Part shown: positions 2,058 to 23,943 of the stretch, piece after piece
Layout: each line of letters opens with the position of its first letter
Numbering within the stretch: position 1 is the first letter of the stretch
Assembly (NCBI GenBank): GCA_965203325.1
Contig: OZ241875.1
Location: forward strand, 3,840,001 to 3,904,000
Source of the DNA: a bacterium
Lineage (GTDB): Bacteria; UBA8248
Direction: 5' to 3'
Length of the DNA: 64,000 nt
Program-made: the position numbers and the translations under genes
The notes under the pieces: model-generated
What the model was told of the DNA's origin: nothing
What the model saw: the letters and a program-made list of their open reading frames with translations, nothing else
The model's database searches: none

Positions 2058-3017
2058 ATGACTGCCACCGCGACACACGACCACAAGGAGAGCATCATGC
2101 ACGAGGTTGACAACATCGAAGCGCAGAACGAATCCTTCACCGCCATGGTCTGCGAACAGGCCGCGCTCTTCGGCGCGACCCCCGGCCCTGACGAGTTCGA
2201 CAACCGCCCCGTGTGGGGCGAAGCGGAGTCCACCGCCGCCGTCCTCAAGGCATTCCACCTGCTCGCCGAGGCCGCGCCCGACGGCACGCAACTGGCCGAC
2301 GAGCGGGCGAGTCTCCTGTGGGGCTTCGTCAACACCTTGGACGCCCAGACACAGCGCCTCGACCGCGCCGCCGACAAGCTCATCCCCGGCATCCGTGAAC
2401 TGCAGCGCGAACAGGACGGCTCCGAGATCCGCTCCCGCGAACTCGAACTCGCCACCGACCGGGCCGAGAACCTCACCGCCCGCCGCGACGCGTTCGAAGG
2501 ACTGCGCGACACGGCCGCCGAGGCCTACCGCGTCGAGACCGGCGAGGTATGGCGGCCACGGCGAGGATCGCACGTCTCGCAGACCGGCAAGCTCACATCG
2601 GCGGTGATCGAGGCGCGTGACTTCCAGCGCGCGAAAAAGGACCGCGAGAGCACGGCCCACCTCCCCCAGGGAACACTCGTCGCCGTCGCGGGAGGCAAGG
2701 AAGCCACCGACGCCGGAAAAATCATCGGCCAGCTCGACAAGCTGAAAGCCAAGTACGCCGACGTCGTCCTCGTCCACGGCGGCGGCCCCGGCGCGGAGAA
2801 GGTCGCGGCGGGATGGGCCGAGCGCAACGGCGTCCACCAGATCGTCTGCAAGCCCGACTGGGACGCCCACGGCAGGGCGGCTCCCTTCCGGCGCAACGAC
2901 GAGCTGCTCTCCCTCCTCCCCAAGGGCGTGATCGCGTTCCCGGGTTCGGGCATCACCGACAACCTCGTCGACAAGGCTCGAAGCCTCGGCATCCCCGTGC
3001 AACGCGTGGCCGCCTGA
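2058..3017 (+). CDS. DUF2493 (YspA-related SLOG) domain protein
   Basis: C-terminal VLVHGGGPGAEKVAAGWA, AAPFRRNDELL, IAFPGSG; typical of proteobacterial plasmids and ICEs. Confidence 0.85.
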   Translation: MTATATHDHKESIMHEVDNIEAQNESFTAMVCEQAALFGATPGPDEFDNRPVWGEAESTAAVLKAFHLLAEAAPDGTQLADERASLLWGFVNTLDAQTQRLDRAADKLIPGIRELQREQDGSEIRSRELELATDRAENLTARRDAFEGLRDTAAEAYRVETGEVWRPRRGSHVSQTGKLTSAVIEARDFQRAKKDRESTAHLPQGTLVAVAGGKEATDAGKIIGQLDKLKAKYADVVLVHGGGPGAEKVAAGWAERNGVHQIVCKPDWDAHGRAAPFRRNDELLSLLPKGVIAFPGSGITDNLVDKARSLGIPVQRVAA

Positions 3018-4190: not shown

Positions 4191-7100
4191 TTGCACGACT
4201 CAATCCGTGAGCTTCAATCAATTTTTCTTGAAGCAGACTCCGCTTGTCTTGAACGTTTGGCCGCCCATGCTCTCGGCTCTTTGCTCGGTGTACCCGTTCG
4301 GGTTGCCCGCTCCGGCGACCAGAGGGGTGGAGATGGTGGCACTTCAGGCATCGATGGCCGTGAACTCGTCTTCGAAACGCGTCGCTACAGTGACAAAACA
4401 AGGATTGACGAGCGCGGCATTCTCGGGGAGATCGAACAAGCAATAGACAGAAAGCCAGATCTTGAAGCCTGGATTCTGGTGACCACAAGGGAGGTTCGCG
4501 AACAAACCGAACAGGCGATGACACGGGCGGGACTGAAAAACGGGGTGGCTACGGTCATTATTGATTGGCTACAACAACCGTTGCCGAAACTTGCTGCACT
4601 CGCTGCCAGTTGTCCGGAGTGTTTCAGGGCCGAGATTGGTGAAGGGTATGATCATCTTCTGACAGATATCGCTGCGATGCAGGGATACAAAAGGACGCTA
4701 AATGCCATCGAATCTGAACTCAATGGCTGGTTATTAGGTTACCAGGCAGTTCGTGACGCAAGTCATGCTCAAGTACGGGAGATTTGGGAATCACGTCAAA
4801 AAGCCAACGCAAGATTCGGGCAAAACGTAGCCGGTGGCACGAAAGAAGCGCACCACGTTCGCCGATCCGGACTGATAGATCGTCTGGATGCTTGGTCTAA
4901 AGCCGCCACTGGCGGCGAAGTGGGTGCATTGGTCGGTCTTGACGGCATGGGCAAGACCTGGGTTGCTATCGATTGGCTTCAGTCGAGACTTAATCAGCTA
5001 CCGATAATTGTACTCGTTCCCTCATCCGCGCTCGGAAACGGGATTGCCAGTCGCACCGATCTAATCAGGTTTATCGCACGCTATCTGCACGATATATCAG
5101 GAGTGCGCAACGAACCGTTCTGGGAGCAACGTGTTCGTCGGCTTTTGGCGCGTCCTCCGGAAGAGGGGCCCGCTTTCTTCCTGTTCTTCGACGGCCTTAA
5201 CCAGCTTTCATCTTTTGACTGGCTTGGAATTTTCCGCCAACTCGAAGATGAGCCTTTTTACAAACGAACTCTTACTTTAATTTCCTCGCGCACTAGTTTC
5301 TACGAAGAGCGTTTGAACAAATTACGCGCTCTGGTTGCAAATCCGGTTCGTATCGATATTGGCAAATACCATCTGGCACCCGACGGCACTTTTGACCAGA
5401 AATTGGAACTAGCTGGCCTGTCCCGCGAGGAACTGTCCGATGAACTGATCGAACATGCGGCAGTGCCGCGATTATTCGACTTGGTAATTCAACTAAAAGA
5501 CTCCCTTGGCGATATTTCCGCAGTGACTGTAAATCGTCTTCTCTGGGCTTATGGTGCATCGACCGATGGCGCATTCAGTGAGGATGACTGGCGGCGGTTT
5601 ATCATAGAACTTGCCAAAGAGCATCAGGACGCCAATCGGGTCTCCACGGTTCAACGCGTCACGGATTTGAGCGAAGATGCGACCCTGACGCCGGATCGCA
5701 TATATCAACGTGTCTCTAGCGTGATCGACGGCATCTTCACGGAACTCAGCGGAGAAGGTGAACTCCATTTCCAAGAGGATTTTGTACACCACGCTTTAGG
5801 TCTTGCTTTGGTGAAGCGCATGGAGCAGACCGAGTCTGACGAAGACGTCACAACTGTTCTTGAAAAATTTCTCGACCCCATTGCGGGCTATGACGCCCGA
5901 GCTGAAACCCTTCGCGCTGCCGTAAACATTACACTTCTGCGAAGTACTCCCCAACAACCGAAATGGCTGAGTACGCTATGCACTTTCTGGATCCAGACAC
6001 AGAACCTGCCCGACGAACATATAAAGGAATTGGAAGTCTTCGCTCCGGAACTTGTCACGCCCTTACTGGATGTAATTGAAGCATCGTATGGACATGCGCT
6101 CACCACGCCGAGACATATTGGAATCAATGCGCTCGCCAGAGTAGAAAAAAGCAACGGGCTCGTTGCCCGGGAGATCGCCGAGCGTGGGGAACAGTGGCAC
6201 AGGTTCATTTCTCTCGAGAAGCACGGTACCGATCTCGGGGAAAACTCGTTCTACGCCTATCGATGCAAACGCCTCAAGGAACGCATAGGCGTAACCGAAC
6301 CAGGCCAAGTAACCGTCACAGGGCGGGTTTTCGAGATCGTGGACTATAGAGGTAATGACCTTATTATTGCGGCATCGCAGCTTCTCCAGGGACGTCCTCT
6401 AGCAGGAGCCATTCAATTCTTCGAAACAGGCGCAATTCATCATGCGATTGTCGGCGGCGGAACAGGACACGAATCCCAATCCTGGCTTAACACTCTCAAT
6501 ACGGTCGATCCGGTGGAAACGGCGGAAGGATTGAGGCGCGCATCGGAAATCGTGCATGAACGTACACCCGAACCTGAAGTTCATAGCGATCTCAACAAGC
6601 GGATTGCATCGCTTCTGCTTCAGTGGACCGGCTATGAAAATGATGACAAGGCGGCGCGGAAGATTGACCCGAAGATCGAGCACTTGCAGCGTTACGAGAC
6701 GGACTATCTGACTAATCCTTCTCGTTCTTTCTTCCGTCTTGAACGGCGGCACACTACTCTTGCGCTCTGCGACACCGAGCTCTCTATCATTCACAGGATC
6801 GGGCGGGCCAAGGACGCTTTGCTTGATCCAAGCTTTGAAGTTCCGCCGGGATTCGTTGATGAATTGATCTCAACTGGAGAAAGTTTTGATTTCTCACAGA
6901 CAGCCACCGGACGTGGTCATACGCGCCACGATCATGAATGGGAACTACTCTCTCTCGCATTTGCACGTTGTGCGCCTGAAAAACTTGCGGACCTCGAACG
7001 CAAGCGCCTGCTTGGTTTTGCCGACCGGCCCATAGATCAACAGTTCGGTTCGTCTCTCGTAGCGCCTGACGCCATGCTTCTCGCAGGAAAGGGAGAAAGC

Positions 7101-8828
7101 ACAGCCATTCAGACTTTACGGGAGCGGGGAGATAGAAGACGAGACAACGCCGAGTATACAACGCAGACCAGCTTCCTGATCTCGGAAATCCAATGCAAAC
7201 CGCCCTTAGAGCAGATCCGAAAGATAATGAAAGCGGAACTCGCTCATATCGACTGGTATTTAGCCGGTGCCTGTGATCCGCCTACTGAACATGAGATAGA
7301 TCTCCTCCTAGACGAGTACGGCGATGATGAAGAACAGCTAAGACGGCTTGCCAGTATCCTCGGTGCCCATGACCTGACCTTGAGCGCTCGCGCTTTTAAT
7401 ACCTTCTCCGACCTTTTGAAACCCGGTGCCACCGACCCCTCATCAGGGGCGGCTTGGGAGCTTTTGGCGTCGAACGAACCAGCGCGCCTGGGTGCCATGC
7501 TCGATAATGACGCCTGGAGTTGGTCGTACGAAAGACACATCATGGAAAATCTTATGGGCTCCGTTGCGATTGCTGAATCGAACCGGGGCACCCCGTTTAC
7601 GGAATATGCACAACGGGTCGCTCCAGCCCAGTTGCTCGAGACATTGTCGCAGGAAAAACGGTCGCGCGAAGATGTGGAACTTGCGGTCGAATTGTTGACT
7701 GGAGTTCTCTTCGGCGATTCCATAGATCCGCCGGAAGCCGGCGTCGCTATTTCTCACGAGCAGGAAAAGGTGCAATTGAGAACCTACCAATGCACCATTG
7801 GGGATGTATACGAGGAAGGAGAAAATCAGGAGAATTTCGTGCGTTTCGTTGAAAGATTCAATTCCCCCGAGAAACATGAAAAAAGAAGGCGCGAGATCGT
7901 CGATGCTTATTTGATTAAGGTCAAGGAAGCGAGACAGTCGGGCGCTCAACTCTATCTCGTGCATTTCACGGCAGATAATTTCGAACCCGTATTGAAACAC
8001 TGTCCAGACGCTGTCGAAACGTGGCTGGCAGGTCTCGAATCTTCGTCGCCGGACTTCATAAGGCGCGTTCGATTGGCGGAAGGATTTTTTGTAGCTCTGT
8101 GCGAGGCGCTTTTGAAGAAAGACCCACCACGCGGCATATCCCTGTGGCGTACCTTGAGGAAGTACCTGGTGACCAAATTCATTGGTCACGCCAATATCGA
8201 TAGATTGGTATATGCCCTGTTTACCGCAGCATCTCACGAAGAAGTGGACACCGCGCTGGAAGAAATTTACGGCATCAACGAAGCTCGAAGCGACGAAGAA
8301 CTGATAAATTTAGTCATAGCGGCTCGTTTGTCGGGTCGAAATGATTGGCTGCGGCGAATGGTGAGTCGTGACGCGGAGTCTTCCTGTCCGGTACATCGGC
8401 AAAGAGCAACCTTCCTGCAACCGTTGTTGACCCGGCCTGATATCGCCGGAGCCAAACATTGGCCCGAGGGTGAAGCCGCGAGCATATACGACTACATTCA
8501 CGAGACCTCTTGGATGCTAGCTCAACGTGAAGCCTTTGCCGCTCATTGGTTACAGAAATTTACCGAAGCGGACACGGTCGAGACTGCCCATGCATGCTGG
8601 CGCCTGTTCAAGGCTTGCGGTGATCGGCGCGCCTGGATTTGGAGGAGGAGCATATGTGAGTCTCACGCAACGCAGAATGAACTTTTGGAAACGGTCAAGA
8701 AAAAATTCATCGAACAAGAAGAACACAATCTGAAGAGCGCGATATCGGAAAACGAACGGTCCTGGTCCGATCATTTCGCGAGGCGCAGATACCCCAACTC
8801 ACTTGTGCCATGGCGTTCAACACCTTAG
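4191..8828 (+). CDS. Avs-like STAND/NACHT NTPase with N-terminal restriction-endonuclease-like domain and long helical C-terminus
   Basis: N-terminal SGDQRGGDG..FETRRY; Walker A GLDGMGKT; Walker B FLFFDGLNQ; 1545 aa; TTG start. Confidence 0.75.
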   Translation: MHDSIRELQSIFLEADSACLERLAAHALGSLLGVPVRVARSGDQRGGDGGTSGIDGRELVFETRRYSDKTRIDERGILGEIEQAIDRKPDLEAWILVTTREVREQTEQAMTRAGLKNGVATVIIDWLQQPLPKLAALAASCPECFRAEIGEGYDHLLTDIAAMQGYKRTLNAIESELNGWLLGYQAVRDASHAQVREIWESRQKANARFGQNVAGGTKEAHHVRRSGLIDRLDAWSKAATGGEVGALVGLDGMGKTWVAIDWLQSRLNQLPIIVLVPSSALGNGIASRTDLIRFIARYLHDISGVRNEPFWEQRVRRLLARPPEEGPAFFLFFDGLNQLSSFDWLGIFRQLEDEPFYKRTLTLISSRTSFYEERLNKLRALVANPVRIDIGKYHLAPDGTFDQKLELAGLSREELSDELIEHAAVPRLFDLVIQLKDSLGDISAVTVNRLLWAYGASTDGAFSEDDWRRFIIELAKEHQDANRVSTVQRVTDLSEDATLTPDRIYQRVSSVIDGIFTELSGEGELHFQEDFVHHALGLALVKRMEQTESDEDVTTVLEKFLDPIAGYDARAETLRAAVNITLLRSTPQQPKWLSTLCTFWIQTQNLPDEHIKELEVFAPELVTPLLDVIEASYGHALTTPRHIGINALARVEKSNGLVAREIAERGEQWHRFISLEKHGTDLGENSFYAYRCKRLKERIGVTEPGQVTVTGRVFEIVDYRGNDLIIAASQLLQGRPLAGAIQFFETGAIHHAIVGGGTGHESQSWLNTLNTVDPVETAEGLRRASEIVHERTPEPEVHSDLNKRIASLLLQWTGYENDDKAARKIDPKIEHLQRYETDYLTNPSRSFFRLERRHTTLALCDTELSIIHRIGRAKDALLDPSFEVPPGFVDELISTGESFDFSQTATGRGHTRHDHEWELLSLAFARCAPEKLADLERKRLLGFADRPIDQQFGSSLVAPDAMLLAGKGESTAIQTLRERGDRRRDNAEYTTQTSFLISEIQCKPPLEQIRKIMKAELAHIDWYLAGACDPPTEHEIDLLLDEYGDDEEQLRRLASILGAHDLTLSARAFNTFSDLLKPGATDPSSGAAWELLASNEPARLGAMLDNDAWSWSYERHIMENLMGSVAIAESNRGTPFTEYAQRVAPAQLLETLSQEKRSREDVELAVELLTGVLFGDSIDPPEAGVAISHEQEKVQLRTYQCTIGDVYEEGENQENFVRFVERFNSPEKHEKRRREIVDAYLIKVKEARQSGAQLYLVHFTADNFEPVLKHCPDAVETWLAGLESSSPDFIRRVRLAEGFFVALCEALLKKDPPRGISLWRTLRKYLVTKFIGHANIDRLVYALFTAASHEEVDTALEEIYGINEARSDEELINLVIAARLSGRNDWLRRMVSRDAESSCPVHRQRATFLQPLLTRPDIAGAKHWPEGEAASIYDYIHETSWMLAQREAFAAHWLQKFTEADTVETAHACWRLFKACGDRRAWIWRRSICESHATQNELLETVKKKFIEQEEHNLKSAISENERSWSDHFARRRYPNSLVPWRSTP

Positions 8829-8849
8829 GCTCGTTGGTGTCTGGCCATC

Positions 8850-9135
8850 CTGAATCCAGCGGCCCTCCTGCCGTGTTTTTTTCGTCTATCCCATCGATGA
8901 ACCTCACGTCGGCCAGATGACGGAAGCTGCGTAGCCGGTGCCATCGATTCTCAGCGCTCATGGCGAACTGATGCACGAGACTCAGCGCCGTCTTCTCGCT
9001 CAGGCAGTTCCTGGTCTTCGCCGTTCGCAACTGGATGATGGCGAAGGTTGACTCGATAGGGTTCGTCGTCCGCAGACTCCGCCAGTGCGCTGCCGGGAAG
9101 TAGTAGAAGGCGAGCAACTCCTCCCCGAATGCCAC
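8850..9135 (-). pseudogene. IS256-family transposase C-terminal remnant
   Basis: EELLAFYYFPAAHWRSLRTTNPIESTF, homologous to the intact copy at 47680-48948. Confidence 0.9.
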
Positions 9136-9193: not shown

Positions 9194-10681
9194 CTAAGAC
9201 ACCACGCCATATTTCTCTCGAAAAGCCTCGACATAGTCTTTGTCCTGACAGATACAATTACCTTTAGAGTCTTTAGCGACTGGATACACTTGAAACCGTT
9301 CCTGCGGCTTGAGTACGTCGAGTTGCGCGATTGTGCTGTGTTCCGGTTCACTCTGACCCAGCCTCACCGCAGCGGCAGCGAGCAGGACGCCGGCCAAGGC
9401 GGACTGGTGGGCTAGTGGGACATGAACATCATCGGCGGGAACACCGATTTCATCCAGCGCAATTACGGCACCACCGCAAAAGCCCTCCGAATACAGATCA
9501 CGCAACGACCGGCCCTCGAAGGGCAAGAGTTTCTCGAGCGCAACGCCGCGCGCTACCGCTATCGCCTCCAGCAAACTCCTTGTTGCACCCTCTTTCTTGT
9601 GAAGCATGTTCCGTACCTCCATCAACTGGTCCGAAACGCCAAACGACTCGGCAATGATTACATCCTCGCTTCTTTGCTGACCATTCGGCTGGTACAGGCA
9701 GTTCACGCACGCACCGTTCGTGAAGTTGTGGACGGATACACCCAAGTCACCTGGCTGAGTCCATGCGTTGGCGATGCGACGGGGCAACGATGCCTGCGCT
9801 GCGCGACGATCATTCGCCGAGTCCAATGCCAAAAGGAGGACATCAGTCCTGCAACTTTCCCTCTCGAGGAATTCTGCCAAGCTGCATCCGTATGCTTCAG
9901 CTTTCAGTGGGCCGGCGAACTTTGCGGCCAAGAACTCTGCCTTAGGCTTGTTCTCTGCGTCTCGTTCGGCCAATACGTAGCGTTGAAGATTGCCTAGGTC
10001 GATCGATTCGTTATCCACAATCTCGATTGCTCCACTAACCTGAGCGCGAGACAGGGCCCAAGCTGTCGCGTTGCCGACGGCACCCGCGCCGGCGAGAACA
10101 AGGCGGCCAACGTCGCCCTTGACGTTGGGGTCGTCCGCAGCCGAGCCACATTCAACCGGAATTGCTAACTCCAGATCATGTTCGAGTTCAACTCCCTGCA
10201 AGTACAGGTGCCTGAACACATCCGCAGCAGCTAGACACGCCGCTAGTCCTGCACCAAACGGGTTATTGCTTTCCCCGCACATCTGCGGGTTACTACTCGA
10301 CAGTTTTGCAGTCCACCCGCTACAACCCACGAAAAGAGTTCGGGGCGCCTTCCGTATTCCGCTCACCGAACCAACGACCACCTCTACCGTCGGCGTCTGC
10401 GACAAGTCGACCCTTGGATTCACTCGCCTCGCCAACTCGGCAGCTTCGCGGCCAGCGCCGCCATTCGACTCATCACGAACCGCTATTGCCGGATACAGAC
10501 GAGCGAACAGCCGTACTAGGAGGTCTACGGCTGCACGACCCTCACTTCCGCTAGCGCTTGACCCTAGGGTCACCCCGACGCATACGTCTCCCAACATCGC
10601 CTCTAGACGCTTTTCGTCCAAACCGGAGATAGCTTGTGCAATAGCAACGGCGTTGCGTCGAAAGTAGTCAGGTGTTGCCAC
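9194..10681 (-). CDS. bilD: Bil system E1-like enzyme (ThiF/MoeB adenylation domain with N-terminal extension)
   Basis: GAGAVG, D..GNLQRY, ALDS; Zn ligands CVNC and CIC; candidate catalytic Cys in EGFCGG; last gene of a Ubl-E2-JAB-E1 operon. Confidence 0.85.
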   Translation of the reverse strand: MATPDYFRRNAVAIAQAISGLDEKRLEAMLGDVCVGVTLGSSASGSEGRAAVDLLVRLFARLYPAIAVRDESNGGAGREAAELARRVNPRVDLSQTPTVEVVVGSVSGIRKAPRTLFVGCSGWTAKLSSSNPQMCGESNNPFGAGLAACLAAADVFRHLYLQGVELEHDLELAIPVECGSAADDPNVKGDVGRLVLAGAGAVGNATAWALSRAQVSGAIEIVDNESIDLGNLQRYVLAERDAENKPKAEFLAAKFAGPLKAEAYGCSLAEFLERESCRTDVLLLALDSANDRRAAQASLPRRIANAWTQPGDLGVSVHNFTNGACVNCLYQPNGQQRSEDVIIAESFGVSDQLMEVRNMLHKKEGATRSLLEAIAVARGVALEKLLPFEGRSLRDLYSEGFCGGAVIALDEIGVPADDVHVPLAHQSALAGVLLAAAAVRLGQSEPEHSTIAQLDVLKPQERFQVYPVAKDSKGNCICQDKDYVEAFREKYGVVS

Positions 10682-10684
10682 GGA

Positions 10685-11170
10685 TCACCCCTCCATTTGC
10701 AGGATGTGCCGAGAATCAGTTGGTGATAGCTCCTCCCATCCATCACGGGACAAACGATATAGCGCGGTATCAGGTCCTCTCACGCCGTACCGGCAGAAGT
10801 CCGGAACCACCAAGGACAAGCCGCCAAGCGTGGTCACCATTGGAAACGCGTCATCCGTATCCGAGTGAAAAGCTTCGGTCGGGTGGGAGTGCACTTGTAC
10901 CGCAAGCCATTCGCCATTCTCGTACAACCACCGATTTAGTCGATCGAGCTCATCCCCCTCCACACAAACACAAAGTCCACTCGCGAATTGGTAAGCGGTT
11001 TGACGGGGATTATGAAACGTCCTGACAAGAAAGCGCTCCTTATCGATAACGCCGCTCCACAGCACGAAATGCTCATTCCGGCCAAGTCCTGCTTCGCGTA
11101 GTACTCGGTCTGTCTCATCACAGATGTGTTCCGGAACAATGAACTCGCAGATTGAACTGAAGGTCTTCAT
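10685..11170 (-). CDS. bilC: Bil system JAB/MPN deubiquitinase-like metallopeptidase
   Basis: N-terminal Glu (NEH) plus QVHSHPTEAFHSDTDD = HxH-x7-S-x2-D-type JAMM motif. Confidence 0.9.
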   Translation of the reverse strand: MKTFSSICEFIVPEHICDETDRVLREAGLGRNEHFVLWSGVIDKERFLVRTFHNPRQTAYQFASGLCVCVEGDELDRLNRWLYENGEWLAVQVHSHPTEAFHSDTDDAFPMVTTLGGLSLVVPDFCRYGVRGPDTALYRLSRDGWEELSPTDSRHILQMEG

Positions 11171-11775
11171 TCTGGTGCCACGCCGAAGTGGAACCCCACC
11201 TGCGGGATCATTTGCACATTGAATCCTACGATTGGTTCCAAGCCGTACTTGGAAACGATTTCCAATAGCCGTATTAGTCGCCCACCACCAGAGGGTCGAT
11301 ACAGTTCCCAGTGGTCTCCGCTATGCGCCGGGTGCTCGTGATACTCCCGGACGCCTGCAACACAAAGAAACGGGATGTCTTCCGGCCCGTACGCTTGCAT
11401 GAGTGGTTGCTGCGGCTGCACGTGCAATTGCACGTTTCCCTGGATCATTGCCGGCGCTTCGCTCCCTGGAAGTGACCGCAGCAACGGCGTGGGTAACTCG
11501 TCACTTCTGTACGGCACACAGGTCAACGGATGCACGAGCCGTACCGAGGGCGGTGCTGCGTCATAGTTCGTGTAGTCGAACCATACCCCGCACACGATCG
11601 CGATTGGTTGCGTCTTCGCAGTTGCGAGAATCACCAGCGCACACGGGAAGTCAGCTCGGACGAGAAACCATCCGCGGCGTCCATACTCTTCGGCCTGCGA
11701 CCGGAATTCGGCTATCTCTCGGTCGAATTTCCGGCGAGAGACAGCTGGGTCTACGAACTGCGCCTTATCCCACAC
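11167..11775 (-). CDS. bilB: Bil system E2-like protein (CEHH family)
   Basis: DYTNYDAAPPSV and FLCVAGVREYHEHPAHSGD (C-E-H-H); overlaps both neighbours. Confidence 0.85.
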   Translation of the reverse strand: MWDKAQFVDPAVSRRKFDREIAEFRSQAEEYGRRGWFLVRADFPCALVILATAKTQPIAIVCGVWFDYTNYDAAPPSVRLVHPLTCVPYRSDELPTPLLRSLPGSEAPAMIQGNVQLHVQPQQPLMQAYGPEDIPFLCVAGVREYHEHPAHSGDHWELYRPSGGGRLIRLLEIVSKYGLEPIVGFNVQMIPQVGFHFGVAPE

Positions 11776-12037
11776 AGCTGCCGCCCACGCCGGCTTTCAG
11801 GTTCAGAAATAACGTCGCCCCTTCCTTAATGCCGGATTGCGATATCTTTGTCCCCATGTCTATGATGGTTCCAGAACCGTCCCGAAGTTCCCAATTTTCT
11901 ATCGGTTGGCCCGAATTGCCCGACTCCTCCAGTGCTTTCGCAGCGGCTTCCCGGAACTCCCACCCTAAGTGGGCCGCCACAGGAACCGGCTGTCCATTGA
12001 CGATGAATTTCAGATCAACGTAATTGTCGCTCATCAC
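11765..12037 (-). CDS. bilA: Bil system ubiquitin-like protein (DUF2604-like)
   Basis: Beta-grasp pattern IVNGQPV..ALEESGNSGQPIENWELRD..LFLNLKAGVGG plus SCVG tail; AGGAGG RBS. Confidence 0.85.
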   Translation of the reverse strand: MMSDNYVDLKFIVNGQPVPVAAHLGWEFREAAAKALEESGNSGQPIENWELRDGSGTIIDMGTKISQSGIKEGATLFLNLKAGVGGSCVG

Positions 12038-12052
12038 GATTTCCTCCTAGAT

Positions 12053-12140
12053 GATGTTCAAGGTGCTCAAGTTGCACACGTCGTACACGTTGCACACGTC
12101 GTACTGTGGGTATTATGCACACTTGCCGCCTCGATTTCAA
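12053..12140 (-). promoter_or_regulatory. Sigma70-type promoter of the bil operon with a downstream 6 x 9-bp repeat array
   Basis: Minus strand TTGAAA (12135-12140)-N17-CATAAT (12112-12117); 9-bp units at 12053-12106. Confidence 0.7.
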
Positions 12141-12504
12141 GAGGGAGGCGCAATGGCCGTCAGATTTCGTGGTCGCGACCCCACAACCGTCCCGGATCCC
12201 ACGACGACACTGCACGGACAGACCCCGCTGCAACAAACGCCCTGCGTTCGCCAGAACGGTCCGTTAGGGCGCATGCACAGGGGACCTCGACTGAACCAGA
12301 TGCAGCAACGCTAGAAGCGTCGGTGCCGTGACCGATCACAGGCTCTGTAATGAAAACAAAACCGCTGCTGATAAGAACGATGCGCCCCGTTTCCGCGTCC
12401 GCGATTTCTTGGGCACGGCGTGGCGGTTCCCGCTCACAGTCGGCCACCTGCGCGCTCTTCACCGTAACCCTGCTGGAAAGACGACAGAGCGCTCCGGTTC
12501 GACC

Positions 12505-13112
12505 CCTACACCTACATTCCCGTCCAGAAGGGCTTCCCGTACCTGGTGGCGGTGATGGACTGGACCATCCGCCGAGTGCTCTCCTTCAGACTCTCCAACA
12601 CCCTCGATGCCCGCTTCAGCACCGATACCCTCACAGATGCCTTGGAGCGCTACGACCCCCTCGAGAAATTTAACACTGACCAAGGCAGTCAATTCATTAG
12701 CCTAAAGTTCATCTCCGTGCTCAAGGACTCCGATGTTGCCATCTCCATGGACCGCACGGGCCGGTGAATGGACAACATCTTCATCGAGCGTCTGTGGCAC
12801 TCCCTCAAGTACGAGGCCGTCTACCTGCATGAGCTCTCGGACGGCTTCCAACCCAAGGAGGTGATTTCCCGGTGGGTGGCGTTTTACAACTACCAGCGCC
12901 ATCACTCGGCCTTGGGGCGTTCCGCCCCTGCCGAGGCCTACGACCGTGGGCTGCCGGCAGATACCCGCAAGAAACCTTTTCGCTCCACCCCCTCTCTCCC
13001 GCTTCCACCGGAACATGACGATGTGTTAAACAGAACCATGGCGGCATGACTTGCTATCCGAAATATACCTTGTTTTTGCCGCCATCCTGTCCTACGATTC
13101 AGAATCACCTCA
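12505..13112 (+). mobile_element. IS3-family remnant (integrase core with in-frame stop, right end)
   Basis: TYIP..YLVAVMDW, FNTDQGSQF, GR*MDNIFIERLWHSLKYE; IR-like end ..ctgtcc..cacctCA at 13112. Confidence 0.85.
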
Positions 13113-13137
13113 CTATTCCGTAGGAGGAAAACGGCAA

Positions 13138-13857
13138 ATGTCCGACGCAGTCAATTTTGACGTCAAATTCGTACCCGCCGGCACGGGACCGGCCGTCTGG
13201 GACGACCCTTACGCCGACCATGTCGTCCACCGGTTCATGCCCCCGGAGCGTAAGCATCCCCCGATGCTCGGCGTCATTCACATGGACGCCGTTCGCCCGA
13301 CCCCGGCGGTCCTGCGAAATGTCGTCGTGACCCTTGCCGAAGATGTAAAAGCAGGCCGATACGGTAGCTGCTCTTTGTTCATTTGCAGCCAGGACGAGGA
13401 CACGCGAAGCGTGATCGGCGATATTGCCGCATCCCAAAACATTGCGGTGTTCCTATGCTCCACTTACTCAGACCTCAAGTATGCGGAACCTGTTGGTGTT
13501 TTGACTGCCAAGGAGCACGAAACTCTCAGTCTAGTCTTCGAAGCCGGTGGGACCGTAAACGCATTGGACCTTGCCAAGCAGATCGGTATCGAGAAAACGG
13601 CTGCGAGCAACCGGTTGGTCTCGCTTCAGAAGAAGGGATTTGTCCTACGTGTCGAGCGTCCACATCCCGCCGGGGACCTTTTCGTTGATCCCCGCGCGCT
13701 CATCGGAGGGGAGACCGAAGCGGGCCCCCAGCTGGACAGCAGGGCGCTGGTCCCTAACCGCACCACCGTCGAGGCCATCGAGGCGGCGCGTCGGGGCGAC
13801 GTCGTGGAACTCGGCAGTCCGGCGGATGCGCTCGCCGATCTCAATAGCGACGATTGA
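13138..13857 (+). CDS. STAS-like plus winged-helix protein fused to a DinJ/RelB antitoxin C-terminal segment
   Basis: AGGAGG then ATG 13138; wHTH LAKQIGIEKTAASNRLVSLQKKGFV; tail LVPNRTTVEAIEAARRGDVVELGSPADALADLNSDD is DinJ-like. Confidence 0.7.
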   Translation: MSDAVNFDVKFVPAGTGPAVWDDPYADHVVHRFMPPERKHPPMLGVIHMDAVRPTPAVLRNVVVTLAEDVKAGRYGSCSLFICSQDEDTRSVIGDIAASQNIAVFLCSTYSDLKYAEPVGVLTAKEHETLSLVFEAGGTVNALDLAKQIGIEKTAASNRLVSLQKKGFVLRVERPHPAGDLFVDPRALIGGETEAGPQLDSRALVPNRTTVEAIEAARRGDVVELGSPADALADLNSDD

Positions 13858-13872
13858 AGAATCCGGTCGGCT

Positions 13873-14172
13873 GTGGCCAGGAACCAGAAAGTCCGTACGG
13901 TCAAACGAACCGCTCAGTTCAAGAGAGATTTCAAACGTGCCAAGCGTGGCGTGCACGGCAGTCATCTTGACGAGACCCTTCTCGAAGCACTCGAACTGCT
14001 GGCGGCGGATGCGCCGCTACCAGATCGCTACGTCGACCATCAGATGAAAGGTCAGTTCAAAGACTGCCGGGACTGCCATCTGCGACCCGACCTCGTGTTG
14101 ATCTACCGAAAACGGGATTCCGACGTTCTGGAACTAGTTCGGCTCGGGTCCCACGCACAACTCGCGATCTGA
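13873..14172 (+). CDS. yafQ: YafQ-family (RelE superfamily) mRNA interferase toxin
   Basis: TAQFKRDFKR, DHQMKG, RDCHLRPDLVLIY, LVRLGSHAQL. Confidence 0.92.
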   Translation: MARNQKVRTVKRTAQFKRDFKRAKRGVHGSHLDETLLEALELLAADAPLPDRYVDHQMKGQFKDCRDCHLRPDLVLIYRKRDSDVLELVRLGSHAQLAI

Positions 14173-14205
14173 GAACACCCGAACACATGCACTGACAGGG
14201 CAACT

Positions 14206-14350
14206 CCGGGCTACGCGAGAGTTTGAATTCATCCGCTTCCGATTTGATTACGTATTGCAGATAGGTAAATCCCCAACGAAGCTTAGAAAAACAAATACCT
14301 GCAACAGTTTCAACAAATTACAAGGATTTTTCGGCTGTTGGAAAATCCCC
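14206..14350 (+). repeat. Module-boundary element, copy A
   Basis: ccgggctacgc..ccgcttccgatttgattac..aaatccccaacgaa..aacagtttcaacaaa.tacaagga. Confidence 0.8.
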
Positions 14351-14692: not shown

Positions 14693-16036
14693 GAGTTACT
14701 CTCAGATCTAGTTTATGGCCTGAATTGAAGAAGGCGGCACATTCCTGCTGAACCAGTGTTGTCAGAAGCCCGTACATTCAGCACATAGGAAATGCTCCAC
14801 CATACACAAAGATACGACGCTTCCCTTTACGAATCCAGCCTTTCGAAACGAGTTGAGCGAACTGGTGCGCGAGGGCGCGCAGCGAATCATCCGCCAAGCT
14901 GTGAAAGCGGAGTTGGAGGCCTTTCAGGAAGAGCATTCTACCAAGCAAGACACGCGAGGCCGTCGCAGGAGGTTTTGGCGGGTGTCGGTCCAGTGCGGTT
15001 TCGTGTTCCCCGGACGCGGGACAGGAGCGGGGCGGGCCGGTGTTTCCGCTCGGAGTTGTTGCCGCCGTATTTGAAGAATACGAGGCGGGTGGAGGCGGTT
15101 TTACCGTGGCTGTACCTGAAGGGGATATCGACGATCGACTTCGGTGAGGCGCTCACGGCGCTGCTCGGTGAGTCGGTGAAGGGTTTGTCTGCGGTTACGA
15201 TTGCGCGGCTCAAGGGCGGCTGGGAGCGCGACTACACGCAGTGGCGCGAGCGGGACTGGTGCGGGGAGGAGTTCGTGTATCTGTGGGCGGACTGCATCTA
15301 CGTGAACGTGCGCAGCGGGGAGCAACGTTGTCTACTGGTGGTTGTGGGCTGCCACGCGCGTGGCCACAAGCACTTCCTGGCCCTGGAGGCAGGGTTCCGT
15401 GAATCGAAGGAGAGTTGGAAGGCGGTGTTGTTGAGTTTGCGGGACCGGGGCGTGAAGGCGGCGAAGCTGGCGGTGGGCGACAGAGGGCTGGGGTTCTGGT
15501 CGGCACTGGCCGAGATGTATCCCGAGACGCGGGCGCAGCGCTGCTGGGTACACAAGACAGCGAACGTGCTCGAGAAGTTTCCCAAACGCATTCAGGACGA
15601 AGCGAAGACGATGCTGCACGAGATATGGCGGGGCCAACACCCGGATGAATGCACACAAGGCGCTCACACGCTTCCTCGCCATTTGGGAGGCGAAGTACCC
15701 GAAAGCCGCCGAATCCCTGGCGAGGTACCAGGAGGAACTGCTCGTCTTCTACGACTTCCCGGCGGCGCACTGGCAAAGCCTCCGGACGCCGAACCCCATC
15801 GAGTTGACCTTCGCCACGATACGTTTGCGAACGGCGAAGACCAAGAATTGTCTGAGCGAGAAGACGGCGCTGAGCATGGTTCACAAACTCGCCATAAGCG
15901 CCGAGAAGCGATGGTGCCGGCTACGCGGCTTTCGTCATCTGACCGACGTGAGGTTCATCAATGGGGTGAACGAAAAAGAACGGGCAGGAGGACCGCTGGC
16001 TTCAGGACGGCCATACACAAGATTTGACCGTAACTC
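14693..16036 (+). mobile_element. Degenerate IS256-family element (frameshifted transposase)
   Basis: Ends gagttac..gtaactc; transposase split over frames 14853-15074, 14792-16027 and 15645 onward; WADC replaces WADG. Confidence 0.9.
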
Positions 16037-16040
16037 ACCA

Positions 16041-18458
16041 TCAATCTTTTGGTGCCATAGCTATACTAGTTTCGATGCGACGTTCGTAGTAGGCGATTTG
16101 TCGACTGATATCGGGATCTCCTACATTTTCTTCGGCTGTTTTCATTTTTTGTATCGCATCGTTAAATGTATCCAAATCTTTCTTTCGTTTGAATATTTCA
16201 ATTCCAATGTCACAGTAAGTAGATAACATATGCTTGTTTCCTGGATACCTATTCACACCGCTCACCGCTAATTCTCGTGCTCGATCAAGAATTACTAGAC
16301 GATCTTCATCCATAAGACCAGGCGCGTTTTTCGCACGCTCAAGAAAAAGGATTATCCGGTAGCGGTACACTGGCCCATCTTCACCAAAATCCTTGGAAAA
16401 AAGTCTAATCTCAGCTTCCGCTTCCTCAAATTGCCTCATGTCAATTAGGTTCTGAATCAAACGATGACGTGGTACTCTTTCCCCTGGAGCAACGGAGATC
16501 ATTTTTGCGAGCAAGCGATTTTGCTTGTGGCGATCTGCTATACGTCGGATACCAGTATTAACGCTGCAGAGTTGACGAAGTGTTCTCACTTCTATGTCAT
16601 AAATTGGATTAAGTGCACTAATAACCTGTTCGTATAAGTCAAAATAATTTTCCGTTTCGGCAAATTTATAATCGGCTATTATTTCCATGATTACACCGTG
16701 ACGCCCTCGCCAGCCGTAAATACCATCCCGCTCATTGACCACATACTCGCGGACGATTCCGTCCAAATGATCGAGAACAGCTGATATAGTTGTCATGTTT
16801 ATTCCTAATAAGCGAATTATCAACTGCCTGTGGACTCGTATTCCAGAACTTTCGAGTGCAGCCACGATCTTGTATATATCTTGATATTCTGAAGCGAGTA
16901 ATGCGTACTCACGCAAAAGAATGTCATCGAATTTCTCGGTCGCAAAAATGTTTTTAAGGCAGACAAACACATCTCGCTCACACCGTTCTTCAAGGCGGCG
17001 GCGCTGCTCTCCGGCAGAGAAATCCAGAAAGCTAGTATGAACGAGTTCTCGAACTGGAGTGCTGGTCTCAACCAACCGCAAAAGTTCAGTGATTTCATTC
17101 GCATTTAATTTTTCTAGCTCATAAATTTTTGAATTCGAGAATAATGCCGCTGATTTTATTCGGTGGTTCCAGCGATTTCGAGCTGACGAAACAACCACTC
17201 TTAAGTTCTTTATATCTGCGGCCGAAAGGGACTCAAACAAAATGTTGATTTCATGTAAGTGGCTATCACTGTCATCAATAAAGATAGCGCCATTTTTTCC
17301 TTCTTTCTCCAAATTCTTAGCTACATTAAGCCATTCATTGTGAAGAAGTTTATGATCTGACTTGTGTTCCCATAAATAGAAATTTCTCTTGGCTAAACTG
17401 TGCATGATTTGGCGCGCTGTAGTGGTTTTTCCAACGCCACCTGCTCCTAAAATAATTACTCCAAAGTGTTCGTTTTCGATAAGTTGCTTTTCTGCAATCT
17501 GTACTAAAGATCGCATGAACGTATTTCCAGAGGCTATGTCGCCGTAACTAGCCGGCCACCCGTTAAACATTTCACTTACGCGTGGAGGAAGTTGCGAACT
17601 ATGATGTACGTCTATTGTAATTGGAGAGAGGTAACGAGAGGCATCAAGCGGATCACTAGATTCTTCATATGCCGTGACTAAGTCAGGACCATGTTTAGTG
17701 AGGGATGCCGCAAATTCATCAATCCCAGCAAAGCACACTTTGAGTCCACGGATTTCATGCAGTTCAGCCCTTTCTTTGTTGGGAGTGTACATAAAAAGGT
17801 AAGTTGAACGGATGTTCATTGCCTGTTTACTGATAGATAATGCACGATTTACAATCTCTCTGATATATGGATCTGCCAAGGAATATCCGATAATAATTAA
17901 ATCCGCCCCTGCCAAATCTCGTTTTAATGAATCATAAAGATATTCTCGATATTCTTCGGTCAAGCTATAATCATTCTCGGTAATAATTAGCCGTGTCTTA
18001 CTTCCATCAGAAACGTCTTCTTCAATGCTGCCATGCAGTTTCATAAGCCGTAGTGAATTAGGCAACTTATCGGCATCGAAATCAAAATTTGATGCGTATA
18101 CTGCCAATGGTTCATTAAATCGCCCAAACGCTTGCTCAAGTAAATTGTCATAATTTGTTGTATAAATACTCTTCCATTTGAAGCGCGGAATAGTGAGTAA
18201 ACCACCAGTAGGCTCAATCCCAACAAAGAGTTCGCGCACGGCCTTAATCAAGTCCACTCGATTTCGACGTCTCTCTATAATGGCTGAAAGTTCGGGCAGA
18301 TTCAGGTCACTCGATTCGAGATCAAAATGTTGGGCAAGATGGTCACAGATTTGCATTGTACTTGGGGCACCAGATGGGATTGAAGAACCAGAGCCAAAAA
18401 GGAGTACTGTTTGTTCTGGATTGATTTCACTAACTAGTTGATCAATGGGAATTGGCAT
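16041..18458 (-). CDS. SIR2-STAND NTPase-TPR antiviral protein (Avs-like NADase)
   Basis: LFGSGSS, YTTNYD, KLHGS and IGYSLAD (SIR2_2); GAGGVGKTT Walker A; IFIDD Walker B; helical C-terminus; AT-rich; probable start MPIPID at 18458. Confidence 0.85.
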   Translation of the reverse strand: MPIPIDQLVSEINPEQTVLLFGSGSSIPSGAPSTMQICDHLAQHFDLESSDLNLPELSAIIERRRNRVDLIKAVRELFVGIEPTGGLLTIPRFKWKSIYTTNYDNLLEQAFGRFNEPLAVYASNFDFDADKLPNSLRLMKLHGSIEEDVSDGSKTRLIITENDYSLTEEYREYLYDSLKRDLAGADLIIIGYSLADPYIREIVNRALSISKQAMNIRSTYLFMYTPNKERAELHEIRGLKVCFAGIDEFAASLTKHGPDLVTAYEESSDPLDASRYLSPITIDVHHSSQLPPRVSEMFNGWPASYGDIASGNTFMRSLVQIAEKQLIENEHFGVIILGAGGVGKTTTARQIMHSLAKRNFYLWEHKSDHKLLHNEWLNVAKNLEKEGKNGAIFIDDSDSHLHEINILFESLSAADIKNLRVVVSSARNRWNHRIKSAALFSNSKIYELEKLNANEITELLRLVETSTPVRELVHTSFLDFSAGEQRRRLEERCERDVFVCLKNIFATEKFDDILLREYALLASEYQDIYKIVAALESSGIRVHRQLIIRLLGINMTTISAVLDHLDGIVREYVVNERDGIYGWRGRHGVIMEIIADYKFAETENYFDLYEQVISALNPIYDIEVRTLRQLCSVNTGIRRIADRHKQNRLLAKMISVAPGERVPRHRLIQNLIDMRQFEEAEAEIRLFSKDFGEDGPVYRYRIILFLERAKNAPGLMDEDRLVILDRARELAVSGVNRYPGNKHMLSTYCDIGIEIFKRKKDLDTFNDAIQKMKTAEENVGDPDISRQIAYYERRIETSIAMAPKD

Positions 18459-18678
18459 TCTAGTTGTTGTCCTTTTATCCTCGTGCCCACGCCTAGAATA
18501 GAAAAAGGGGATTGAAGTACGTGTGCAAGTTGCTTCTTCATTCAATGCCCATCATCAATTTAATCCATTTTCAAACCAAGTCCAAGTCACACCGTTATTT
18601 GCCATTTTTTGGTTTCACATGCCAATTCAATTGAGCAAGTGATGTATATAATTCCCTAAATTTTTCTTAGTCAATGGA

Positions 18679-22929: not shown

Positions 22930-23943
22930 GTGAAGCCGAAGTTTGATCCTGCTGAATTTGTTCGACGCGTTGGGCGCGATTTGGTGAGTTCCTTTGAGTC
23001 TGCACGTGAAGCCACTACACCTGGGCTTGTCGGGGGCGCAATCGAAAATGCGGTTCGGAACCGACTAGAGCAGATACTACCGAGAGGAATCGGCGTAGGC
23101 ACCGGCTGCGTGATTGATATTCACGGAGGCACTAGTCGTCAAATAGACGTCGTTTTGTACGAGAAAGAACTGTGCCCAAGATTCTCCGTTAATGAGAATT
23201 CAGAGACAAGTTATTTTCCTGTGGAATCTGTGCTCGCCGTCGGTGAGGTCAAGAGTGTTATCGGGAAAGTGGAACTTAATGACGCTTTCAAGAAAATCGC
23301 TTCCGTGAAATCGCTCTATAGATCATTTGAGAAGATGGATGGCAACGTGTATGTAGGCAGGCGGTATAGCGATAGTGGTTCTGCAACAGCACTTGGGTTT
23401 TATCGAGATAATACCAACTTGGGTGATGTCCTTGGATTCGTACTGGCAGAGAGATCTAATATCACCATAACCTTGCCCGACCCCTCGAAGACACACAAGT
23501 CCGCTCCGAAGGCAACACTCTTGGGGCATTACGTTGAGAATGTAACAACGCTAAACAACGATGTGCTGTGTCCTGATACGGTAGTCTTTCTTGATGGTAC
23601 TGTTTTGGTTCCTTATGCGGCGAACGGATTGACTCCTTATGTAGCCGCCAGAGTGCGAAATGTGCTGCCACATCTTATTCATCCAGTTAAGGCCGATTCG
23701 CCATTCGGAGAACTCATCAAGACAATTTGGAAGCGACACCGGGAAGGAATTACAGCACACATACCACTAGAGAGATACCTGCACTTCGAAGCTAAGACGG
23801 AACCGAAATTGACGTGGGCCGTGATTGCCAATTTTCACCAACCGGACCAAAATGAACTGAAGGTGGGGGAGCGATTAGAAATCACGACACCGACCGACCA
23901 CCTTAGAAGTGATTTGCAGTATCTGGCGAGAAATAGAACATAG
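22930..23943 (+). CDS. DUF6602-like restriction-endonuclease-fold protein
   Basis: GGAIENAVR, GCVID..SRQIDVVLYE, FPVESVLAVGEVKS. Confidence 0.75.
   Translation: MKPKFDPAEFVRRVGRDLVSSFESAREATTPGLVGGAIENAVRNRLEQILPRGIGVGTGCVIDIHGGTSRQIDVVLYEKELCPRFSVNENSETSYFPVESVLAVGEVKSVIGKVELNDAFKKIASVKSLYRSFEKMDGNVYVGRRYSDSGSATALGFYRDNTNLGDVLGFVLAERSNITITLPDPSKTHKSAPKATLLGHYVENVTTLNNDVLCPDTVVFLDGTVLVPYAANGLTPYVAARVRNVLPHLIHPVKADSPFGELIKTIWKRHREGITAHIPLERYLHFEAKTEPKLTWAVIANFHQPDQNELKVGERLEITTPTDHLRSDLQYLARNRT

Follow-up and report, generated by a model that had tools for sequence, protein, structure and literature searches.

STAS-domain proteins have been described in two forms, as CapS-type repressors and as antitoxins, presented in 2026 as separate proteins that each require a kinase (Chambers et al., EMBO J 2026, PMC13373217). 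In the passages of that article that deal with CapK+CapS, CapS (PDB 9Z71) consists of a STAS domain (residues 1–111) and a winged helix-turn-helix (wHTH) domain (residues 112–184) and is a homodimeric repressor released once CapK phosphorylates Ser54; capK lies directly upstream of capS in 443/443 cases, and five Bil operons are counted among the associated systems. The passages on VapKSC describe VapS (PDB 9Z7O) as a STAS protein with a short C-terminal region that functions as a type II antitoxin. Here, we analyze a 64,000-nucleotide (nt) stretch of a UBA8248 genome (assembly GCA_965203325.1, contig OZ241875.1, positions 3,840,001 to 3,904,000), hereafter the window, to whose coordinates all positions refer. 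It encodes a 239-amino-acid (aa) protein, the regulator, in which a predicted STAS-like domain and a wHTH domain are followed by the C-terminal tail of a DinJ-type antitoxin; its gene is divergent from a Type II bil operon.

We propose, with a probability of roughly 0.7, that in this protein a kinase-less, CapS-like repressor of a Type II bil operon has replaced the ribbon-helix-helix (RHH) domain of DinJ and also neutralises YafQ through residues ~203–236. A single protein probably has both the defence operon and a toxin under its control. [quoted passage not shown] It differs from CapS in that it has no linked CapK gene, is divergent from the operon whereas capS is described there as co-directional, and adds an antitoxin tail and a toxin gene. 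With VapS, as portrayed in the same passages, it would share the use of a C-terminal region by a STAS-domain protein acting as a type II antitoxin inside a CapS-related family. Yet VapS lacks a wHTH, binds VapC (a PIN nuclease) mainly via its STAS domain, and depends on the adjacent kinase VapK, whereas the regulator has no linked kinase, its toxin is YafQ, and its neutralising part is predicted to be the borrowed DinJ tail.

Its third relative is the DinJ-YafQ pair itself (PF04221; PDB 4Q2U and 4ML0). The regulator tail is homologous to DinJ, the gene is directly upstream of yafQ, and the modelled regulator-YafQ interface resembles the way in which the antitoxin wraps the toxin; the difference is that the RHH domain of DinJ, which serves DNA binding and dimerisation, is replaced by a 190-aa STAS-wHTH body. 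A toxin-antitoxin (TA) module has also been linked to a neighbouring defence system in Pez-Ham, where PezAT is reported to repress Hachiman (Tian et al. 2025, PMC13064477). As proposed for the regulator, expression of the defence system depends there on a type II TA module next to it, but through an ordinary antitoxin that regulates its neighbour, whereas here the regulator of the defence operon would itself have become the antitoxin by fusion. Neither YafQ nor DinJ appears in the text of PMC13373217 by term search, and our literature searches returned no description of a STAS-wHTH-DinJ tail fusion.

The regulator ends in the toxin-binding tail of DinJ

The regulator is encoded by a single open reading frame (ORF) on the forward strand that runs from an ATG at 13138 to a TGA at 13855–13857, preceded by its own Shine-Dalgarno sequence (Table 1). 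The predicted AlphaFold model orders it as a beta-alpha-beta-alpha-beta-alpha-beta-alpha-beta domain, a wHTH, and a low-confidence tail, with a predicted local distance difference test (pLDDT) score of 74 for the whole protein and 78 for the N-terminal domain (N-domain) alone; pLDDT falls below 50 across residues 191–206. The Pfam MarR model (PF01047) matches residues 122–175 (E 9.6e-6; 25.8 bits, cut-off 24.6), MarR_2 is matched by 30/32 relatives, and structural comparison places the wHTH among those of MarR, ArsR, and Z-alpha proteins with Z scores of ~7–8. Both residue strings quoted in the original prediction, which rested on the letters of the window, are present in this protein, IHMDAVRPTPAVLRNVVVTL at residues 47–66 and LVPNRTTVEAIEAARRGD...ADLNSDD at the C-terminus.

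Positions 13720–13854, which encode residues 195–239, are 75.6–77.8% identical in translation to residues 41–85 of 85-aa proteins of the PF04221 (RelB) family. When two such canonical RelB/DinJ proteins (P0273 and P0278) were compared with the window by tblastn, they matched with E values of 4e-16 and 2e-17 through residues 41–85 only, and their residues 1–40 had no match anywhere in 12000–14300. The confinement of the match to residues 41–85 places the fusion junction near regulator residue 195 and shows that the RHH domain has been lost. The link between tail and DinJ emerged solely from a search restricted to proteins of 30–130 aa, in which residues 190–239 gave 26 matches among 27 candidates. 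These are mostly 85 aa long and 73–78% identical over 90% of the region (E ~1e-10 to 1e-11); PF04221 was precomputed in 9/26, and one is named DinJ at its source. The 85-aa proteins in turn match the E. coli DinJ of the YafQ-DinJ complexes 4ML0 and 4Q2U at 1.6e-6, and among their plasmid relatives (83 records, 40–44% identity), nine of ten listed rows show a RelB/DinJ annotation next to YafQ. Judged by these sequence matches, the C-terminus of the regulator is a genuine toxin-binding tail of the RelB/DinJ type. Other searches did not recover it: the Pfam RelB model has no match in the regulator, the tail alone has none in Pfam at E <= 10, its comparison with PDB sequences failed to find DinJ (best E 0.33, ribokinases), and BLASTP against DinJ proteins from genomes of the same genus yielded either no match or just PNxxTxEAIxxAR (E 0.009).

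Across 401 genomes of the phylum of L001, one of the other long-form loci, the canonical 85-aa antitoxin retrieved only the fused gene and relatives of 35–38% identity, and a metagenome scan with the tail alignment gave five loci, with no close canonical pair and no new fusion. One locus, L041, is an orphan 93-aa ORF that bears the tail without yafQ. In another protein, P0272 (99 aa, on a 514-nt contig), a Phd/YefM-like N-terminus is followed by the linker of the regulator itself, DDPRSLVRRKTEAGPG, and then by the DinJ tail; its composition marks it as a putative second-generation swap of the same tail to another DNA-binding domain.

After a 15-nt gap, the regulator is followed by yafQ, which starts with GTG at 13873. 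Its product matches PF15738 (YafQ_toxin) over model positions 1–86 of 88 (E 1.5e-27; 96.2 bits, cut-off 30), NCBIfam TIGR02385 (RelE/StbE) at 3.9e-23, and the YafQ chains 4Q2U_B and 4ML0_B at 7.6e-11 and 2.3e-10. H56, H69, D73, and H94, which we take to be the catalytic residues, are invariant across nine sequences. A complex model of YafQ with regulator residues 190–239 scored 0.91, against 0.00 for the best of three controls, a level attained by 116/157 solved complexes and 2/215 mismatched pairs. Its runs agree in no fewer than 95% of contacts, with a partner pLDDT of 78 or more, and the predicted interface covers residues 203–236. Since DinJ-YafQ complexes have already been solved, the model shows likeness to them and is not independent proof. 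Thus, the original prediction, made without database searches, is borne out for the uninterrupted 239-aa frame with its AGGAGG, the wHTH, the tail that matches the DinJ/RelB C-terminus at 76–78% identity, the loss of the RHH N-terminus, and the intact yafQ 15 nt downstream, and the modelling that it suggested is consistent with an interaction of the tail with YafQ.

RNA libraries give a weak hint that the regulator and yafQ are expressed. Metatranscriptome contigs from two runs of two studies cover 13116–13775, with 21 differences over 660 nt (97% alike), and 13812–14003, with three differences; the latter crosses the regulator-yafQ junction. Further contigs cover 13335–13733. Cover is absent over most of 11787–12300 and is uninformative there.

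The N-domain has a predicted STAS-like fold

We compared the N-domain with 48,161 structure chains using VIA-align. The ten best matches are all STAS domains (Z 8.8–7.5), with 96–105 of 122 residues aligned and a root-mean-square deviation of ~3 A, and the first non-STAS structure ranks 11th. With the whole model, STAS domains make up 18 of the 50 best matches, and every match to the N-domain is a STAS domain. Because Z scores of 7–8 are commonly reached with this method, STAS is the best-supported fold and not proof. The STAS-like domain of the original prediction is therefore upheld as a predicted fold by VIA-align, whereas Foldseek, a search that the prediction proposed, run against the PDB with the whole model and with the N-domain, found nothing at E <= 1e-3. 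The CapS type that the prediction named does exist, as CapK+CapS in the article cited above.

Thr55, at the start of helix 2, is near-invariant in the close family. In 32 wider relatives, its column holds S/T in 24/32, D/E in 4/32, and neither in 4/32. Thr55 is a putative counterpart of the regulatory Ser54 of CapS, and the N-domain is probably a dimerisation and signal-input module.

Distribution and evolution of the regulator

A word-indexed search returned 231 relatives of the regulator at E <= 0.001. Among the 120 relatives listed, 100 cover 70–82% of the query, with a typical length of 191 aa, while 20 cover 99–100% of it with 57–94% identity; from these two classes of coverage, the family comprises a short form, made up of the N-domain and wHTH, and a long form that carries the tail. 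The fusion, which the original prediction would have abandoned had no other genome held it, thus recurs in 20 of the 120 listed clusters. The 190-aa core is 57–76% identical across metagenome-assembled genomes (MAGs) labelled Acidobacteria/Terriglobia, Gemmatimonadetes, Actinobacteria, Rhodobacterales, Gammaproteobacteria, and others. The gene is present in 1/51 genomes of the window's phylum, in 0/22 other genomes of the same genus, and in 2/401 sampled genomes of L001's phylum; a search of plasmid records with the regulator gave no match.

We next determined the gene neighborhood at 23 loci from a scan of one genome per species, comprising 4 long-form loci and 19 untailed or partial ones. 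According to this survey, bilA lies within 1 kb of the regulator in 14/14 full-length short-form loci (13 divergent, 1 co-directional), and bilABCD lies within 7 kb in 3/4 long-form loci. A cognate bilD, 85–100% identical, is present in all five tailed-form genomes, the window's included. The toxin gene yafQ follows with a 15-nt gap in 5/5 tailed loci and is present in 0/19 untailed or partial ones. When neighbors were clustered, only BilABCD, the regulator, transposases, and YafQ recurred. In this regard, the search for homologs and their neighborhoods outlined in the original prediction, which named a kinase and bil, finds that bil recurs and a kinase does not. In this Bil clade, the 190-aa core is probably the ancestral partner, and a widespread one.

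In L006 (8307–10753), from a Vicinamibacterales MAG, the regulator and bil share one orientation, and the CEHH and JAB genes are each split, the JAB gene by ~1.2 kb of inserted DNA, so that the operon appears to be decaying. L019, L021, and L022 hold truncated or frameshifted short-form regulators with no bil genes within 7 kb and are remnants after operon loss.

To place the tailed proteins, we built a quick IQ-TREE phylogeny of 109 sequences with a midpoint root, from 106 of the 121 proteins P0002–P0122 and three outgroups; 15 proteins, the full-length P0004 among them, were dropped at a motif and length filter. The 20 tailed sequences form one clade (SH-aLRT, 100) nested among the short forms, which suggests a single capture of the tail followed by diversification. 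In pairwise comparisons of the five genomic copies, the ratio of nonsynonymous to synonymous substitution rates (dN/dS) is 0.11–0.21 for the STAS domain, 0.11–0.72 for the wHTH, 0.16–0.73 for the tail, and 0.13–0.32 for yafQ, indicating purifying selection; the linker is at ~1, a noisy value from 13 codons.

The wider STAS-like plus wHTH family (P0132–P0233; 192 representative clusters at E <= 0.001) includes members with other C-terminal extensions of 50–90 aa. One, of ~90 aa, has an RHH-like look (LPxEVRxxVxxLAxxQGRxPxxVLxxAWREF), and another, of ~50 aa, carries GIxTNPYD. A search of this "NPYD" tail (P0158 residues 192–243) among short proteins gave no candidate.

The divergent bil operon and its promoter

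The four genes on the reverse strand (Table 1) form a Type II BilABCD operon by their Pfam domains in order, in line with the divergent Bil genes of the original prediction; the PADLOC matches to BilB, BilC, and BilD are weak. Chambers et al. (preprint 10.1101/2023.09.26.559546) give the order of Type II BilABCD as ubiquitin-like protein (Ubl), CEHH/E2, deubiquitinase (DUB), and E1. The operon shares with that type, as set out in the preprint's passages, both the gene order and the CEHH motif, with FLCVAGVREYHEHPAH of bilB paralleling the E. aridi BilB sequence printed there. The same passages place CapH/CapP beside 15% of surveyed Bil operons; they use "transcriptional regulator" once, for CapH/CapP, and do not mention a wHTH partner.

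Upstream of bilA, a candidate promoter consists of a −35 box TTGAAA (12135–12140), a 17-nt spacer, and a −10 box CATAAT (12112–12117), directly followed by a conserved, inverted-repeat-like CCAC...GTG block (12078–12111). The arrangement is shared by the family, whose bilA upstream regions show TTGACA, 17 +/- 1 nt, a CATAAT-like box, and then a CCAC...GTGG block. A loose pattern of the −35/−10 pair with the block after the −10 box fits 16/18 of these regions, and a strict CCAC-N8-GTGG type of repeat fits 9/18. The block is kept in the window and in the long-form loci L001–L003. The entire bilA-regulator spacer measures just 93–95 bp at four loci, so that one site could serve both genes.

The block of the window contains an 18-bp tandem duplication, with copies CAAGTTGCACACGTCGTA and CACGTTGCACACGTCGTA. 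L001–L003 lack it, as does a DNA contig of run X4 (93% alike, with 18 nt missing at 12071), and it could alter repressor occupancy. The regulator has a candidate promoter of its own, which is kept in all five long-form loci, including L002, which is free of insertion sequence (IS) remnants. A TATCC(G/A)AA motif considered upstream of this promoter was dropped, as only 4/19 loci match it.

Proposed mechanism and alternative explanations

In the mechanism that we propose, the wHTH would bind the inverted-repeat block after the bilA −10 box and repress the Type II BilABCD operon, while the flexible linker and the 35–45-aa DinJ tail would wrap YafQ and keep this mRNA interferase inactive. In one lineage, the core would have taken the place of the RHH domain in an 85-aa antitoxin of the DinJ type, so that regulator and yafQ came to form a bicistronic unit; YafQ-(regulator)2-YafQ would be the complex to expect, and addiction to YafQ would stabilise the regulator gene and its island. 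Loss of the regulator, through proteolysis of the linker or tail, transcription shut-off, or a phage factor, would then derepress bil and free YafQ. That Bil induction is functionally coupled to YafQ release in this way is a doubtful extension of the proposal. We are similarly hesitant about the idea that two immune layers are governed by one hard-wired switch, the fused protein, with a YafQ-loaded dimer of it sitting on the bil promoter. Such a switch might be triggered by phosphorylation of Thr55 by an unlinked kinase, a protease acting on linker or tail, host transcription shut-off, or an anti-repressor phage protein, and its removal would turn on ubiquitin-like conjugation and release the interferase simultaneously.

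Several points weigh against the main proposal. The STAS assignment comes from predicted models of middling confidence (pLDDT 74–78) with middling Z scores, the Foldseek result was negative, and Pfam STAS models match 0/32 family members. CapS itself (9Z71_A) is reached at E 1.5 by phmmer and at E 0.56 by a profile, over the wHTH only. A CapK-like kinase is absent among the conserved neighbors at the 23 loci and in the window, and the genome's only small anti-sigma-type kinase lies ~1.9 Mb from the regulator (a search with PF13581 gave one 139-aa protein at that distance and three large proteins). Given this insignificant sequence similarity and the absence of a linked kinase, we call the regulator CapS-like and do not assign it to CapS. 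The operator-like block of the long forms deviates from the CCAC-N8-GTGG of the short forms and is missed by the strict pattern, and the RNA-library contigs may hold DNA and lack transcript ends. The remaining points also favor the main rival account, an addiction module in which the fused YafQ antitoxin autoregulates its own operon through the STAS-wHTH body, while control of bil has been weakened or lost and no coupling exists. Namely, an IS3 remnant separates the regulator from bilA by 1.1 kb in the window, and its 3' end lies upstream of the regulator in four of the five tailed loci (the window, L001, L003, and L004, but not L002); the gene order of L003 differs; in G054, the fourth long-form genome, bil is on another contig and bilD is 85% identical; and wHTH dN/dS rises to 0.3–0.7 in several long-form pairs. 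The DNA-binding domains of type II antitoxins are exchangeable modules, and P0272 places the same tail on a Phd/YefM-like N-terminus. In contrast, the retention of cognate bilD in all tailed genomes, the bilA promoter block kept in the window and L001–L003, and the strong purifying selection on the STAS domain count against an addiction-only role, which we consider unlikely.

The other explanations concern the identity of the protein. It might be a true CapS that was deprived of its CapK kinase when IS3 inserted, as the original prediction suggested along with the removal of the native promoter; the CapS-like architecture, the position of Thr55, and the IS3 remnant upstream would fit. Yet in the IS-free L002 the bilA-regulator spacer is 295 bp with no gene inside, a finding that largely refutes kinase loss, and the last ~85 nt before the ATG, with TTGTTT-17-TACGAT, are conserved between L002 and the window, against loss of the promoter. 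Moreover, a conserved kinase neighbor occurs in 0/14 short-form loci, the regulator is divergent from its operon instead of following the reported capK-capS order, and the match to 9Z71 has an E value of 1.5; a lost CapK is very improbable. An N-domain that senses a ligand or nucleotide (CARF-like or another Rossmann-like fold, as in Csa3) or serves dimerisation only, with induction by ligand or proteolysis, has more in its favor but is still quite unlikely. NCBIfam Csa3 and PADLOC CasR/CARF3 models match the regulator, Foldseek lists Csa3 structures 2WTE and 6WXQ at E ~0.01, no kinase is linked, and the Thr55 column lacks S/T and D/E in the four relatives noted above. These family matches, however, span only the wHTH (residues 110–179), for which reason a CARF/Csa3 identity was set aside; no CARF chain is found in the 50 best N-domain matches, whose first ten are STAS, and the alternation of S/T with D/E at Thr55 would be typical of phospho-sites. 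An assembly error or frameshift that joined two genes, or a decaying gene, is the least credible explanation. The surroundings are rich in IS fragments, but the comparative data refute it: the same fusion is found in the listed tailed clusters, which form one well-supported clade with dN/dS below 1, and independent DNA and RNA-library contigs cover it.

Genomic context

The features of the locus are collected in Table 1. The IS3 remnant has no second copy in the genome. Around the locus, GC content is 41–58% over 3–24 kb (~21 kb), compared with ~65–70% in the surroundings, and IS256/Mutator-family transposase fragments at 8837–9124 and 15731–16018 (inverted, 288 nt, 83% complementary) flank bil, the regulator, and yafQ. 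Their layout recalls composite-transposon ends; the right-hand copy (14792–16226) is frameshifted. The low GC content and the flanking inverted fragments indicate that the module was horizontally acquired, and window positions 3000–24000 are a horizontally acquired defence island. Three further genes lie in it. An 834-aa protein with SIR2 (ThsA-like) and nSTAND5 NTPase domains, encoded at 16041–18545 on the reverse strand in the part of lowest GC (41–44%), is likely a separate defence gene. A 1545-aa ORF on the forward strand (4191–8828) has no Pfam or PADLOC match at E <= 0.001. At the island edge, a DUF6602 protein (22930–23943, forward strand) matches PD-DExK and NucC-type nuclease models of PADLOC at 2.5e-32 and is a defence-type gene.

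Table 1. Positions, strands, and supporting evidence of features at the bil-regulator-yafQ locus
Feature	Position	Strand	Evidence or remark
bilD, E1 (ThiF) with N-terminal Prok-E2_C/E1-N region	9194–10681	−	Prok-E2_C 7.8e-22, ThiF 7.2e-12, PADLOC BilD 8.5e-14
bilC, JAB deubiquitinase-like	10685–11170	−	PADLOC BilC 2.2e-12; Pfam Prok-JAB 1e-3, below cut-off
bilB, CEHH/E2-like	11167–11775	−	Pfam Metal_CEHH 1.5e-51; PADLOC BilB match
bilA, single beta-grasp Ubl (DUF2604)	11765–12037	−	Pfam 1.1e-22
18-bp tandem duplication in operator-like block	12068–12103		Repeat search, family D2
Candidate bilA promoter/operator	12078–12140	−	Consensus match only
IS3-family transposase remnant, rve core, frameshifted, N-terminus missing	12546–13049	+	Pfam rve 1.9e-10, rve_3 3.1e-10
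Candidate regulator promoter, TTGTTT-17 nt-TACGAT	13070–13098	+	Consensus match only
Shine-Dalgarno AGGAGG	13122–13127	+	Upstream of regulator ATG 13138
STAS-like alpha/beta domain, residues 1–120, conserved Thr55	13138–13497	+	AF2 models, VIA-align
MarR-type wHTH, residues 121–190	13498–13707	+	Pfam MarR, structural matches
Linker, residues 191–202, predicted disordered, contains fusion junction ~195	13708–13743	+	pLDDT, DinJ match start 13720
RelB/DinJ toxin-binding tail, residues 203–239 and stop	13744–13857	+	Sequence match, predicted YafQ interface
yafQ, RelE/YafQ-family mRNA interferase, 99 aa, GTG start	13873–14172	+	Pfam, TIGR02385, PDB

Implications

The regulator is a highly conserved and previously unremarked partner gene of a Type II Bil clade. 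In its tailed form, the locus would join in one polypeptide the two jobs that CapS-type repressors and STAS-based antitoxins perform separately, with a different toxin and without a linked kinase. CapS-like proteins that lack a kinase may more generally provide a chassis to which different effector tails become attached at the C-terminus. If the proposed coupling is true, the toxin would guard the regulator against sabotage by phage and back up Bil by translation arrest. The locus bears on the question of what coordinates abortive with non-abortive phage defences and keeps them silent, and, with three genes and one promoter, it offers a compact system for studying how a toxin may monitor the integrity of a regulator and which signal induces Bil.

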